Origin: Escherichia coli O127:H6 str. E2348/69
Lineage (GTDB): Bacteria; Pseudomonadota; Gammaproteobacteria; Enterobacterales; Enterobacteriaceae
Strand: one strand, 5' to 3'
Assembly: GCF_000026545.1 (NCBI RefSeq)
Contig: NC_011601.1
DNA: 64,000 bases
The notes under the pieces are model-generated. The model saw only the letters and a program-made list of their open reading frames with translations. It made no database searches and was not told the origin of the DNA. Made by a program: the position numbers and the translations under genes. Shown here in pieces: positions 31,608 to 59,028 of the stretch; the first letter of the stretch is position 1, and each line of letters starts with the position of its first letter.

Positions 31608-33448
<1,841 letters not shown>

Positions 33449-53546: not shown

Positions 53547-56018
53547 TTAAAAATCAGCCTGATTCGGGATCAGTTTTTGCCAGATAGCTGAAACGTATTT
53601 TGCCTGGTGACGAGCGTCATCAAGTGCATTATGGCGCTCACCTTCGAATGGAATAGCCGTTCTGGCATCGAAGTCTATGGCTTTCCCCAGCTCAACGATT
53701 GTGCGTACATCGCGATCGTTGTAGTAACGCCACGGGCAGGGGATCCCCTGCCGTTCGTATGAACGGCGCAAAATCGTGTTGTCGAAGTTGGCTCCATTTC
53801 CCCAAACCTGAACAAAAAATTCACCGGAGTTTTCGTCGATAAATTCCCGCAATTGTAACAGTGCATCATCTAACGGGATTTCATCGGTCATAATGGCAGA
53901 TTGCGCTTCGCGTGATTGCTTAAGCCACCATTTAATGGTGTCCCGATCAATGACTCCGCCAGCAGTTTCCAGATCGATAGTCTTACTAAATTCCGGTCCC
54001 ATATCTCCGGTTTGCGGATCGAAAAATATTGCACCTATTGAGATGATCGGGGCATCAGGATTTTTTCCCATGGTTTCAAGGTCGATCATTAGATGGTCAC
54101 ACGTCCTGCTGGTGGATGTGATTTCGTGATGACCGTTCACCTTAATTGAGTGATCTGCCGTCTCGCCAGTCTCATTATCGCTATTGTGATGCTGATTGCC
54201 GCCAGTGTTCTCCTTGTGTGGATGCTCAGCGCCTTCCATTTCCTCCGGATCATCTTCCTGAACTTCAACCTGATACTCTTCATCGAATGTTTCCTGGTAT
54301 GTTGCGTCGCCCATCACCGCACCACAATCAGGGCAGTTGCCGCCGCCGGTCTGACCGCAGGCGGTGCAGACTTTTTCCACTTCCTGTTGCACTACTGGTT
54401 CAGGTAGTTTCGTTTCTGGCTCGTTTTGTTGCGTATTTGGGCTGTTTTGTTCCGCTTTCTGGTCGTTCTGTTCCGTTTCTTGCTGGTTCTGGTTCACAGA
54501 ATCGCGGGTTTCAATCCCCTTCACCCATTTCGGATCATTCGGATCGCTAATCCCTGCAACAAATTCACCACGTGATACTGCAAGCAGTTCATCGGCGTCA
54601 GGCTGGCTGATATTGGCTGCCTGCATAATTTTGTTTACTTCGTCAGCGGTAACTTTTACCGGCCCTGGTTGTGCGGTCGTGTCAGATGCACCAGTATTTT
54701 GTTGTGAACCTGAGTATGTACCGTTTTTGCGGGCGAAATATTCTTCTTTCGTGATTTCAGTAGCCCCTGCAGCCAGTGCCTTATCCAGACCAGAAAGTTT
54801 GTTTGCGCGACCGTATTTTTCGCTATCCTTGTCGGTGAAGAGGAAGTAGAACGGCCCTTCACGCTCTACAGATGGTTCGACTTCCACTTTGCATTCGGTT
54901 TTTTCGTTGTCCGGAATTGCCGTTTCCACTGCATCAGTTTCTGGTACTGGCGACGAGAGAGTATCAGTTGCGCTCTGATTTGTTCCTTCATCTTCAAACA
55001 CGCCCTTTGTAGTCAGGTATTCAGTAATGTATTTGTTCAGTGCCACAGGGTCTTTGTGAATGTCGATCGGACGTTCACGGACAAGGCCAAAAATAGTCTG
55101 GCGGTCGTAGCGAAGGGCATCAGGCTGTTTGCGCATTGATGCCGAGATACGCTTCCAGTCTTCGCGGTAGTTGTCGATAACTTCATTTTTTGCCCAGCGA
55201 TGGATGCTGCCGTCAATGTTTCCGGCATCCACATCACCAGGCCAGAGAGCGTAGGCCAGTTCGTCATCCAGTGTTTTCCATGTCTGCTTGTATTCGCGAT
55301 GAGTGGCAGCAATGACCGGGCTGATTTTTCCTGTTGAATTTTCAGTGTTCTGTTGATTGGCTCTGGCGCGGGCGAGATCAACAACAGACGTGTATTTTCC
55401 GGTTTCCTTGCGTTCACCTTCGCGACGTTTTTTCCAGATGCGCATCTCTGCCTGAATTTCGGGCCATTTGGCACCAGGCTTACATTTATGCTTAACCCAC
55501 CCGATGGCATGCAGCTTAAGCTCCGGATACATGGCGTTAACTTCTGGCATTTTCATCAACGCTTCAACGATATGTCCGTCGAATGTTGCCATGTCTTCCT
55601 GCAACAATTCCTGTGCGCTAATCACCATATCAACGGTGATGTTTTCACATGTGTCGAACTTAACCATGACAGCGTTCTGTACTTCAGGGGCCAGCTTGTC
55701 AAAAGTGACGTTCATCGGATCGGATTCAGTCTCAACCGGGACAAAAGAAGCAGAATCCTCATCCCAGCGGTTTTCCTGCATATATTCAGCATCCCATGAA
55801 TCGAGGGCAGGGCGGGGTATGCCAGGTTTATCCTCGCAGACAATAAATTTATAAGCGCAGTCCTGAGCAGCCGGATAATGTTCCAGGAATTGCCAGTGAA
55901 ATTTTGCTCGAGCACGGCGTTCGTCGCCAGCTTCAATGGCTGTGGCTACAGCCACAGCGCCTTCTTCCCTTGTTGCCAGTTCGTCAGGAATAGCGGCGCA
56001 AATAAAGACTTTACTCAT
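53547..56018 (-). CDS. prophage exonuclease with C-terminal DnaQ-like (DEDDh) 3'-5' exonuclease domain
   Basis: ORF 53547-56054 (alternative start MSKVF at 56018); C-terminus has DLETMG and HNALDDA motifs; central Gln/Asn/Glu-rich linker and a Cys4 cluster CTACGQTGGGNCPDCG. Confidence 0.7.
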   Translation of the reverse strand: MSKVFICAAIPDELATREEGAVAVATAIEAGDERRARAKFHWQFLEHYPAAQDCAYKFIVCEDKPGIPRPALDSWDAEYMQENRWDEDSASFVPVETESDPMNVTFDKLAPEVQNAVMVKFDTCENITVDMVISAQELLQEDMATFDGHIVEALMKMPEVNAMYPELKLHAIGWVKHKCKPGAKWPEIQAEMRIWKKRREGERKETGKYTSVVDLARARANQQNTENSTGKISPVIAATHREYKQTWKTLDDELAYALWPGDVDAGNIDGSIHRWAKNEVIDNYREDWKRISASMRKQPDALRYDRQTIFGLVRERPIDIHKDPVALNKYITEYLTTKGVFEDEGTNQSATDTLSSPVPETDAVETAIPDNEKTECKVEVEPSVEREGPFYFLFTDKDSEKYGRANKLSGLDKALAAGATEITKEEYFARKNGTYSGSQQNTGASDTTAQPGPVKVTADEVNKIMQAANISQPDADELLAVSRGEFVAGISDPNDPKWVKGIETRDSVNQNQQETEQNDQKAEQNSPNTQQNEPETKLPEPVVQQEVEKVCTACGQTGGGNCPDCGAVMGDATYQETFDEEYQVEVQEDDPEEMEGAEHPHKENTGGNQHHNSDNETGETADHSIKVNGHHEITSTSRTCDHLMIDLETMGKNPDAPIISIGAIFFDPQTGDMGPEFSKTIDLETAGGVIDRDTIKWWLKQSREAQSAIMTDEIPLDDALLQLREFIDENSGEFFVQVWGNGANFDNTILRRSYERQGIPCPWRYYNDRDVRTIVELGKAIDFDARTAIPFEGERHNALDDARHQAKYVSAIWQKLIPNQADF

Positions 56019-56110
56019 TTGTTTTAACCTCATGACAGATTTAAGGATGAACAAATCCCTGCCATTGCTGGCATATAAGAATGAAACCGGATATTTATTA
56101 CGGAACTGTT

Positions 56111-56302
56111 TTAAAGACCTGCCGGGATTTCGATATTATCCTGGTGAATAACTTTATCGACCGGGTAACAGTTACCGGGAATTTTCTGTTCGGTTGCTGC
56201 AGTCATACACTACTGCATTGTCCTGTGAACACTGACTGCAATATCAACTGGCTCTCCGGAAACAAGAAAAACTGTCAGAACAAGCACAAATGCTGAATTC
56301 AT
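56111..56302 (-). pseudogene. ydfD: ydfD-like lysis-protein gene interrupted by an in-frame amber codon
   Basis: MNSAFVLVLTVFLVSGEPVDIAVSVHRTMQ then TAG, then the frame continues CMTAATEQKIPGNCYPVDKVIHQDNIEIPAGL; total length equals a 63-aa gene; start overlaps the dicB stop as ATGA. Confidence 0.6.
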
Positions 56303-56656: not shown

Positions 56657-56714
56657 AAAAAGGGCGGCAGAGCAGTCACGGAGTAAAACTGATACCGCCA
56701 AACGTCACCAGAAA
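56657..56714 (-). ncRNA. dicF: DicF small RNA
   Basis: Minus-strand sequence TTTCTGGTGACGTTTGGCGGTATCAGTTTTACTCCGTGACTGCTCTGCCGCCCTTTTT matches the recalled DicF sequence including its terminator hairpin and U-tail. Confidence 0.75.
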
Positions 56715-57433: not shown

Positions 57434-57589
57434 TCACCCACCTGAATTTCTTTCCAGCCAGCGACGCGCTCCAGATTCGGTTTTAAACGTTTTGCTTTTG
57501 GTATACGTCATCGCGGTGAACGTACCGTCCTGGTTGGGGAACACGCCACATACCAGAGATTCGCTGTTGCCAAGATCGATAGTATCCAT
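57434..57589 (-). CDS. ydfA: Qin-type small prophage protein YdfA-like
   Basis: 51 aa from internal Met (MDTIDLGNSESLVCGVFPNQDGTFTAMTYTKSKTFKTESGARRWLERNSGG); the ORF-track frame extends to 57682. Confidence 0.55.
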   Translation of the reverse strand: MDTIDLGNSESLVCGVFPNQDGTFTAMTYTKSKTFKTESGARRWLERNSGG

Positions 57590-57780
57590 GTTGACCTCAT
57601 TTCCCCTTAACGCCGGGGTAGCGGAACTGTTTGCTGAGAACACCGTGCGGTGTCTTGATGGATCGTAATTTAGTTTTCTCATGAATATTGATCAAGTGCT
57701 TTTGATGATAAAACTCAATATTTAATGCAAAATAAAGCCAATACATTGAAATGTAAGGCTTTAAAATTTGTGAAGGGGGG

Positions 57781-58188
57781 TTATTGATGTTTGTTACGTT
57801 TGCGAGCTTCTAGTAGCTCGGTGAATAGGCGATTAAAATTCTCAACGCGGGCACGGAGTTCGCTGATTTGTGCTTGCTGCTCTGATTTTGGAAGTGCGCG
57901 ATACAATCGCAACATCTCCAACTCATCTTCCGATAAGTCTAAGGCGCTGTTGAGTGCAACTGGTGGATCTGGTGTTTTATCCTCGTCACCAAACAGTATC
58001 CAAGTTGGTGAACATTGCAATACCTCAGCCAGGCGATGCAAATTTTGCCCGCGCGGGGCTGTATGGTCGCTTTCCCATAGTGAAATTGATGAGCCAGATA
58101 CGCCAGCAGCTTTGCTTAAATCGTTTTGACTTAAACCAACCTGTTTGCGTCTTTCTCTAATTCGTTGACCTAAAGTTTTCTCGTTCAT
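57781..58188 (-). CDS. dicA: prophage repressor, DicA-like (XRE-family HTH)
   Basis: 135-aa ORF; HTH region QRIRERRKQVGLSQNDLSKAAGVSGSSISLWE and the VLQCSPTWILFGDEDK segment recalled from DicA. Confidence 0.85.
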   Translation of the reverse strand: MNEKTLGQRIRERRKQVGLSQNDLSKAAGVSGSSISLWESDHTAPRGQNLHRLAEVLQCSPTWILFGDEDKTPDPPVALNSALDLSEDELEMLRLYRALPKSEQQAQISELRARVENFNRLFTELLEARKRNKHQ

Positions 58189-58209
58189 ATTTAGATATCT
58201 TAATAACCC

Positions 58210-58239
58210 TTGACTTGAGATTCCTTGAGTGATTACTAT
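58210..58239 (+). promoter_or_regulatory. candidate rightward promoter and operator region of the dicA/dicC switch
   Basis: -35 TTGACT (58210-58215), 18-nt spacer, -10-like TACTAT (58234-58239); three TTGAG pentamers 11 and 14 nt apart. Confidence 0.4.
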
Positions 58240-58265
58240 TGAGAAAACTCAACTTTGGAGGGGTG

Positions 58266-58493
58266 ATGTTTAAATCAGACGTAATTAATTTTTATGGGAC
58301 GAAAGCCAAAGTAGCGAAAGCTGCTGGTGTTGATCCATCTGCTGTTTCTCAATGGGGGGAACTGGTTCCTGAAGGTCGCGCGATGCGCCTGCAAGAGGCA
58401 TCCGGCGGGGAACTTCAGTACGACCCCAAAGTTTATGACGAATATCGTAAGGCAAAGCGGGCGGGGCGGTTGAACAATGAAAATCACCCCTGA
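58266..58493 (+). CDS. dicC: Cro-like regulator, DicC-like
   Basis: 75 aa from internal Met (MFKSDVINFYGTKAKVAKAAGVDPSAVSQWG...); divergent from the repressor gene. Confidence 0.75.
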   Translation: MFKSDVINFYGTKAKVAKAAGVDPSAVSQWGELVPEGRAMRLQEASGGELQYDPKVYDEYRKAKRAGRLNNENHP

Positions 58494-59028
58494 ACAGGTT
58501 TGTGAGGCTCTGGATGCCTGGGTATGCCGACCAGGAATGACACAGGAGCAGGCGACGATATTAATCACGGAAGCATTCTGGGCTCTGAAAGAACGCCCGA
58601 ACATCGATGTTCAACGCGTCACGTTTAATGATGGCGAGGTTGATCAACGGGCGCTGTGCGTTAACCGGGTGAAGATATTCGAACGCTGGAAAGCTATCGA
58701 CACCAGGGATAAGCGGAAAAAATTCACGGCGCTGATTCCGGCAATTATGGAGGCTATCCGAATTAGTGATTTCAGGCTGTATCGTGAGATCAGTGATGGA
58801 AAAAGCATTACGTACATGATCGCCGGATTAAACAAAGAATATGGCGATGTGGTGGAGTCCGGGCTGCTTTTTGCGGATCCATCTGTTGTGGAACGTGAGA
58901 CTGACGAGCTTATAGAAAAAGCTATTGCTTTCAAGCATGCGTATCGTCAGCAATATCAATATTACTTTGCAGATAAACAAATGTCTGCCAGGGGTTCGTA
59001 TGAGTATCGATGCACTACGATGGGCTAA
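58477..59028 (+). CDS. prophage early protein, YdaT-like (CII-analogue family)
   Basis: 183-aa ORF overlapping the dicC stop; segment KFTALIPAIMEAIRISDFRLY resembles the recalled YdaT core; function uncertain. Confidence 0.5.
   Translation: MKITPEQVCEALDAWVCRPGMTQEQATILITEAFWALKERPNIDVQRVTFNDGEVDQRALCVNRVKIFERWKAIDTRDKRKKFTALIPAIMEAIRISDFRLYREISDGKSITYMIAGLNKEYGDVVESGLLFADPSVVERETDELIEKAIAFKHAYRQQYQYYFADKQMSARGSYEYRCTTMG

Follow-up and report, generated by a model that had tools for sequence, protein, structure and literature searches.

A candidate DicA/DicC operator system with TTGAG half-sites in a lambdoid prophage of Escherichia coli E2348/69

Between a dicA-like repressor gene and a divergent dicC-like gene of a lambdoid prophage lies a spacer of 77 bp in which copies of the pentamer TTGAG crowd around a promoter. 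The question that this locus raises is whether these copies are operator elements and, if so, in which arrangement a repressor would read them. The module controls dicB and dicF, inhibitors of host cell division, and knowledge of its operator, TGAG-AAAA-CTCA, would allow homoimmune and heteroimmune DicA-type prophages to be predicted, reporters to be designed and host genomes to be searched for off-target sites. The stretch of DNA analysed here, referred to as the window, is 64,000 nucleotides (64 kb) long, and its positions 57700-58600 are 100% identical to E. coli E2348/69.

The prophage and its divergent spacer

According to the RefSeq annotation, the dicA-like/dicC-like region belongs to a lambdoid prophage inserted beside potC, in which the order of features is integrase, excisionase, 3'-5' exonuclease, ydfD (a pseudogene), dicB, the DicF RNA (56662-56713; 76.7 bits), ydfC, ydfB, ydfA and the repressor gene. 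The leftward operon ydfA-ydfB-ydfC-dicF-dicB adjoins the repressor gene in the RefSeq annotation of the identical E2348/69 region, and rightward of the repressor gene stand the dicC-like gene, a YdaT-family gene and the replication genes. Two reading frames of the left part were noted in passing; the ydfD region (56111-56302) is a RefSeq pseudogene with an internal stop, and the 835-aa frame at 53547-56054 is the annotated 3'-5' exonuclease gene, for which RefSeq gives a later start.

The repressor gene (57781..58188, minus strand, from the list of open reading frames) encodes a protein of 135 aa with an N-terminal HTH_3 domain and without a peptidase domain; a Pfam search of this protein returned helix-turn-helix families alone, and a C-terminal RecA-cleavable or oligomerisation domain was not found. 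The protein is 56% identical to K-12 DicA (E = 2e-51), and its residues 1-72 match the N-terminal domain of P22 C2 (PDB entries 1ADR and 2R1J, E = 2e-15 to 8e-15). On the other side, the gene at 58266..58493 (plus strand; RefSeq product 'dicB transcriptional regulator DicC') encodes a Cro-type protein of 75 aa that is 71% identical to K-12 DicC (E = 2e-41) and matches the Pfam family P22_Cro (E = 1e-17) and the PDB entry 1RZS, Cro regulatory protein (E = 2e-12). A first-pass annotation of the window had placed a switch region between dicA and dicC at 58189-58265, and both the layout, with the flanking frames at 58188 and 58266, and the assignment of the two genes were borne out.

That annotation had also proposed a rightward promoter, which a consensus scan recovered with 9 of 12 matches: a -35 hexamer TTGACT (58210..58215, plus strand) and a -10 hexamer TACTAT (58234..58239, plus strand) separated by 18 nt. 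It was the only promoter-like site found by the scan in 57600-58700. A Shine-Dalgarno sequence for dicC, GGAGG (58257..58261, plus strand), was read from the sequence as a purine-rich block that is kept in relatives. The predicted transcription start of dicC is 58246, which puts the -11 A on 58235, in line with K-12.

Relatives of the locus were collected from two scans. Searching viral contigs with the DicA protein gave 80 loci, all with a DicA that is approximately 100% identical, and these were used for polymorphism counts only; the close-relative counts given below refer to 79 loci with a near-identical DicA. A scan of genome contigs with an alignment of 50 proteins confirmed 9 loci, and 12 more were added through exact-protein look-ups. 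The alignment of 14 sequences comprises the window and 13 diverged loci of the same type (DicA identity 69-96%), which by their source labels belong to Salmonella, Citrobacter, Klebsiella, Enterobacter, Kluyvera, Buttiauxella, Scandinavium and E. coli, together with phage mEp460_ev081; the relatives compared are not independent samples. The immunity module is also carried by a functional temperate phage, mEp460_ev081, and at least 80% of a 901-bp query was present in 795 of the 5,426 complete E. coli genomes. One locus, L083 (JAEWTL010000124.1), is a 5-kb contig in a MAG labelled 'Bacillota bacterium'; its DicA is 96% identical and its operators are identical, and its label probably reflects mis-binning or contamination.

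Across these samples the CTTGAC of the -35 is invariant in all 14 loci of the same type, and TTGACT is invariant over eight immunity types. At the -10, the leading TA does not vary in the 14-locus alignment, the pattern TA...T is kept in most relatives and the inner bases are variable.

Candidate operators on both sides of the repressor gene

The first-pass annotation had described three TTGAG pentamers, spaced 11 and 14 nt apart, as a candidate operator array overlapping the promoter. The three copies are indeed present on the plus strand, starting at 58215, 58225 and 58239, with a start-to-start spacing of 10 and 14 nt instead of 11 and 14; a fourth copy on the minus strand (58248-52) had been overlooked, and with the third it forms a perfect inverted repeat, TTGAG-AAAA-CTCAA. 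The pentamer is not enriched over the window as a whole (117 observed against 130 expected in 64 kb). When the 64-kb window was shuffled 300 times with its dinucleotides preserved, four copies on both strands within 40 bp occurred only once and three same-strand copies within 30 bp twice.

The copies differ in how they are kept. Among the 79 close relatives, the exact pentamer is retained in 75 at the first position (58215-19), in 77 at the third (58239-43) and in all 79 at the fourth (58248-52, minus strand). Pentamer 2 (58225..58229, plus strand) reads TTGAG in 59 of them, TTGAA in 19 and TTTAG in one. The conservation across homologous switch regions that an array of pentamers would be expected to have breaks down at this copy, which in the 14-locus alignment is TTGAG in three (the window, L083 and mEp460), TTGCG in nine, TTGCC in one and TGTCC in one. 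Pentamer 2 overlaps the degenerate right half of a candidate site described below as Om, and it runs in direct orientation and is shifted by one base against it; a role as a recognition unit is improbable.

The model of the first-pass annotation, in which three same-strand pentamers form a direct-repeat array and each is recognised separately, draws on the improbability of three such copies falling within 29 bp by chance, given the shuffles above, and on the distance of one helical turn between pentamers 1 and 2. Nevertheless, pentamer 2 is not conserved, pentamer 3 pairs in a perfect palindrome with an opposite arm that is just as invariant, the homologous domain of P22 C2 binds inverted pentamers as a dimer (PMC5175364) and the leftward sites described below are inverted and not direct repeats, so that we consider a direct array very unlikely. 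What stands of the proposal is that TTGAG is very probably an operator half-site; the comparisons favour an inverted pentamer-N4-pentamer, not three direct pentamers, as the unit.

The perfect inverted repeat, here named Oc (TTGAGAAAACTCAA, 58239..58252, with the core TGAGAAAACTCA at 58240-51), shares its first base with the end of the dicC -10 and extends across the predicted +1. Its 14-mer has no other exact match in the 64-kb window. The core is invariant in 14 of 14 diverged loci of the same type, with variable flanks on both sides, and the 12-mer is present in 76 of the 79 close relatives. Oc aligns with the Oc of K-12, which is experimentally supported (PMC3441716), and we predict that it is the main repressor operator.

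Two further candidates, Oa and Om, lie upstream; from centre to centre, Oa to Om measures 25 bp and Om to Oc 24 bp. Om (TTGAG-ATTC-CTTGA, 58215..58228) overlaps the last base of the -35; its left half is perfect and is pentamer 1, and its right half is degenerate, with three of five matches in the window and two of five in most relatives. Both TGAG (58216-19) and TTCCT (58221-25) are invariant in the 14 diverged loci, and the other immunity types carry their own half-site directly after TTGACT. For the conserved block TTCCTTG in the right half of Om, the half-site model gives no reason.

This block enters into another explanation of the first two pentamers. Read on the minus strand as CTCAA-N5-CTCAA, they flank a would-be -35 of dicA and might be the site of a CII-like activator of the YdaT family, or else YdaT might bind the spacer. 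Lambda CII reads a direct repeat, TTGC-N6-TTGC. A YdaT-family gene follows dicC, and DicA half-sites do not account for the TTCCTTG that lies between the -10 and the left half of Om; in Rac, moreover, YdaT footprints the -35 and -10 of the ydaS promoter in the racR-ydaS spacer, an action like that of CII (PMC11879457). However, the direct repeat is confined to the E. coli subgroup of the 14-locus alignment, and the YdaT box described so far, TTGATT-N6-AATCAA, has inverted symmetry (PMC11879457); a search for it in the spacer (58189-58265) found none. We therefore hold a YdaT site in the spacer to be just as improbable as the direct array. Elsewhere, at 58470-58487, an inverted repeat TTGAAC-AATGAA-AATCAC has the ydaT start codon in its spacer and resembles the footprinted YdaT boxes of Rac and CP-933P (ATGATT-CATGAA-AATCAA and TTGATT-N6-AATCAA; PMC11879457). 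K-12 Qin, L083, L092 and mEp460 carry this repeat too, and the other genera lack it.

Oa (TTTAG-ATAT-CTTAA, 58190..58203) abuts the dicA start codon and has two mismatches to TTGAG-N4-CTCAA, one in each half-site; it is one base off the core of the P22 consensus operator, TTAAG-ATAT-CTTAA (PMC5175364). All 79 close relatives have it unchanged, and the 14-locus alignment of diverged loci shows conserved arms. As operators, Om and Oa would be weaker candidates than Oc, and their occupancy, if any, would come about through cooperativity, a high level of repressor or DicC. By analogy with K-12, in which the sequence-predicted Om and Oa showed no DicA binding in an in vivo assay (PMC3441716), they may not be true repressor sites of the window type at all. 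The invariance of Oa could derive from a function in the dicA promoter or in translation start instead of an operator role. A -10-like hexamer, TAAGAT, overlaps Oa on the minus strand (58202-58197), 8 nt before the dicA ATG; were it the dicA -10, the dicA mRNA would have almost no leader, like that of lambda PRM, which is speculation on our part. Immunity types whose DicA recognition helices differ, at least three of them (the window type, L085 and L086), have an almost unchanged Oa. Hence Oa might be a common site for a factor other than the cognate DicA, namely DicC or the P22-like repressors of co-resident prophages, an idea that is compatible with the failure of K-12 Oa to bind DicA (PMC3441716). 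We regard it as unlikely, though if it is true, heteroimmune prophages would be linked by regulatory cross-talk right at the repressor gene.

A third exact copy of GAGAAAACT, which belongs to an inverted repeat in dicA codons 3-5 (58174-82, minus strand), was considered as an extra operator and set aside; its phase does not fit that of the other sites, it is kept only where the protein begins MNEKT and is absent with another N-terminus, and it is probably coincidental.

Copies of the Oc element recur at the leftward promoter, whose position is that of the dicB promoter in K-12 (PMC10448788) and which has a -35 TTGATC (57695-57690, minus strand; TTGACC in most relatives) 17 nt from a -10 TAAATT (57672-57667, minus strand). 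OL1 (ATGAG-AAAA-CTAAA, ATGAGAAAACTAAA, 57669..57682, minus strand) overlaps this -10 and has two mismatches to the Oc 14-mer, and OL2 (ATGAT-AAAA-CTCAA, ATGATAAAACTCAA, 57705..57718, plus strand), a slightly degenerate copy, lies upstream of the -35; the two are 36 bp apart. Oc, OL1 and OL2 all fit pentamer-N4-pentamer, and their AAAA centre is invariant. At up to two mismatches, the Oc 14-mer is found in the 64 kb at these three places alone (58239, 57669 and 57705), all of which flank the repressor gene. For the less specific pattern TTGAG-N4-CTCAA at up to two mismatches, the 28 matches in the window equal the chance rate overall, and five of them (Oc, OL1, OL2, Oa and Om) fall within 57669-58252, against approximately 0.26 expected. 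The 12-mer at up to one mismatch gave four matches in the window against 0.28 expected.

The leftward sites are conserved as well. In OL1, with the core TGAGAAAACTAA, the pattern TGAGA.A.CTAA is invariant in 12 loci, and the 6-9 nt upstream of it are hypervariable. At OL2, TGAGTT..T.A forms an invariant island between hypervariable spacers of the aligned loci, and in nine of the 11 other aligned loci this position is occupied by exactly TGAGTTTTCTCA, which is the Oc core in reverse complement. An explanation of the core at the level of RNA was rejected, as OL2 has the opposite orientation and lies upstream of a -35. Going by these alignments, the element has been retained in either orientation, at both promoters and in several genera, and an operator bound by a protein is the best explanation for it.

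In E2348/69 itself, OL2 (TGATAAAACTCA) and the -35 (TTGATC) are each one base off the majority forms (TGAGAAAACTCA and TTGACC); the OL2 variant is common to a minority of related prophages. By analogy with OL1, an alternative dicC promoter, TTGAGT-18-TCAACT, was considered, and it was dismissed because its putative -10 is not conserved in the 14-locus alignment. Two spurious N-terminal extensions in the list of reading frames, one from a TTG start at 58239 (58239..58493, plus strand) and one from an ATG start at 57682 (57434..57682, minus strand), both begin MRKLN, because Oc and OL1 have TGAGAAAACT(C/A)AA in common.

Two further groups of matches were recorded elsewhere in the window. The only other match to the core at up to one mismatch, TGAGAAAACTCC at 31691-31702 (minus strand), lies outside the prophage in apparently coding sequence, and approximately 0.28 such matches are expected by chance. 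Between 62241 and 62961, near a disrupted prophage integrase gene, four of the 28 TTGAG-N4-CTCAA matches fall within 720 bp; none of them is like the AAAA-centred core, and the cluster is possibly an effect of composition.

The leader between the dicB promoter and ydfA (57590-57660, minus strand) is conserved across immunity types and genera. It consists of CATCAA, a hairpin, CTCAG, an A-rich spacer and GTTCCGC...GGCG..(A)GGGG. The hairpin, ACACCG-CA-CGGTGT (57653-57640, minus strand), has a stem that varies by locus (ACACCG/CGGTGT or AATCAC/GTGATT) with its pairing kept; RNAalifold gave a consensus of four pairs from an input in which this first hairpin was misaligned, and a search of Rfam with the leader matched no family. 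It could be an antitermination element (nut/put-like) or an RNase-processing element.

Immunity types and the proposed switch

Seven other immunity types (K-12 Qin, L085-L089 and L091) retain TTGACT and the overall layout, each with an Oa-like dyad at the dicA ATG, TTGACT, a type-specific half-site, a -10, a dyad at the position of Oc and a Shine-Dalgarno sequence. The dyads differ by type, being TTGTTAGTTATGACTAACAA in K-12 and TTGTTAGACATACCTAACAA in L088, and in every type the OL carries the type's own dyad again. Yet another dyad, CCTTAGGAAAATCTAAGG, is contained in a primer sequence upstream of the dicC of an O157:H7 strain (PMC6915034). The other types also differ from the window type in the recognition helices of both proteins; that of DicA is SHVSVSQWE in K-12 and SGSSISLWE in the window, and that of DicC is RLASLYSW in K-12 and DPSAVSQW in the window, the last being invariant in the 13 loci of the window type with a translatable dicC. 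A comparison with the K-12 operators, which the first-pass annotation had suggested as a check on its pentamers, found the pentamer absent there, with TTGTTAGTTATGACTAACAA standing as K-12 Oc at the same position. We ascribe the different sequence of K-12 Oc to the other recognition helix of K-12 DicA. Given the different operators and helices, the window type and K-12 Qin are expected to be heteroimmune.

These comparisons bear on the simplest alternative, that the pentamers are a chance cluster in an AT-rich promoter region, conserved through promoter, 5'UTR or translation signals alone. It could appeal to the window-wide count of TTGAG, to the overall chance rate of two-mismatch TTGAG-N4-CTCAA sites and to the overlap of Oc with the dicC -10 and the predicted start site. 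Against it, the other promoter has the 12-mer again, in both orientations and in one case upstream of a -35, where it would go untranscribed; the core changes together with the recognition helix of the repressor across types, with the -35 constant; and the inner bases of the -10 vary when the 12-mer does not. A chance cluster is accordingly the least credible of the explanations weighed here, and we judge it extremely unlikely. It is in our view highly likely that a lambdoid DicA/DicC (Qin) switch, with a specificity unlike that of K-12 and with TTGAG-N4-CTCAA operators, has its OR-type control region in the 77-bp spacer.

In the mechanism that we propose for such a switch, a DicA dimer would bind the 14-bp inverted repeat TTGAG-N4-CTCAA through its P22-C2-like helix-turn-helix. 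DicA on Oc would cover the last base of the -10 through approximately +7 and so block initiation by RNA polymerase at the dicC promoter, and this occupancy would repress the dicC-ydaT-replication operon. On OL1, over the -10, and OL2, upstream of the -35, it would repress ydfABC-dicF-dicB. As K-12 and lambda suggest, DicA on Oc may also stimulate transcription of dicA, and the Cro-like DicC may use the same sites to shut dicA off. Since DicA is without a cleavage domain, induction would presumably proceed, again by analogy with K-12 and lambda, through an antirepressor. For the window type, we infer DicA binding, the hierarchy of sites, autoactivation and the dicA promoter from sequence and precedent.

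Comparison with K-12 Qin, P22 and lambda

In K-12, the dicA-dicC operators Oc, Om and Oa were described by Bejar et al. (1986, 1988), as quoted in PMC10448788, and by Yun et al. (2012, PMC3441716), who mapped the dicC start site (PMC3441716). K-12 Oc overlaps the dicC -10, DicA binds it in vivo, represses dicC and activates dicA, and single-base changes in Oc abolish DicA binding in vivo (PMC3441716). DicA, which has no Ala-Gly cleavage bond, represses the dicB promoter; DicA and DicC form a bistable switch, and the antirepressor Rem relieves the repression (PMC10448788). Binding of Oc by DicA, repression of dicC and dicB, activation of dicA and the opposing action of DicC have been demonstrated for the K-12 and O157 types only (PMC3441716, PMC10448788, PMC6915034).

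The window has the features of a Qin-type locus: divergent DicA and DicC homologues, a leftward operon, a dyad at the position of Oc and copies of the operator at the dicB promoter. Gene order, homologous genes and the place of the -35 TTGACT are shared with K-12 Qin, as are a dyad over the -10 and start of dicC, two further predicted sites approximately 25 bp apart and matching sites at the dicB promoter. The operator sequence and specificity are not shared, with TTGAGAAAACTCAA here against TTGTTAGTTATGACTAACAA there; K-12 has TTAGT-N4-ACTAA inside a 20-bp TTGT...ACAA palindrome, whereas the window has TTGAG-AAAA-CTCAA with free flanks.

P22 C2 binds as a dimer to a consensus operator, ATTTAAGATATCTTAAAT, with TTAAG half-sites and four central base pairs that are not contacted (PMC5175364). 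The helix-turn-helix domain and the Cro-like partner of the window are homologous to those of P22, and both systems have inverted pentamers with a 4-bp gap (PMC5175364); the half-sites differ by one base, TTAAG in P22 and TTGAG in the window. An A/T-rich centre is favoured in P22 (PMC5175364, PMC4267663), where an A-tract was bound most tightly (KD 4.3 nM, against 14.4 and 57.6 nM for other centres; PMC4267663), and the centre of the window Oc is an invariant AAAA. In the alignment, the window DicA has G, S and L where P22 C2 has its contact residues N32, V33 and Q37, replacements that would fit a changed specificity. Unlike P22 C2, the window DicA has 135 aa, and a RecA-cleavable C-terminal domain was not detected in it; it is therefore not an orthologue of C2 in the mechanism of induction, and Qin is induced, unlike P22, via the antirepressor Rem (PMC10448788).

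A literature search with the Oc 12-mer on either strand returned unrelated papers only and none in a relevant context. The specific operator thus appears to be undescribed, and its kind is well known. Conceptually, nothing here goes beyond the lambda/P22/Qin paradigm, and judged by its sequence the operator system is of the ordinary lambdoid OR/OL kind, of a heteroimmune DicA/DicC type and of the P22-like family. It resembles lambda OR/OL in its divergent repressor and cro genes, in three sites approximately 24 bp apart over two promoters and in a second, leftward set of sites (PMC10448788). It differs from lambda in that neither of its proteins is closely homologous to lambda CI or Cro, and in that its OL comprises two clear sites 36 bp apart and not three.
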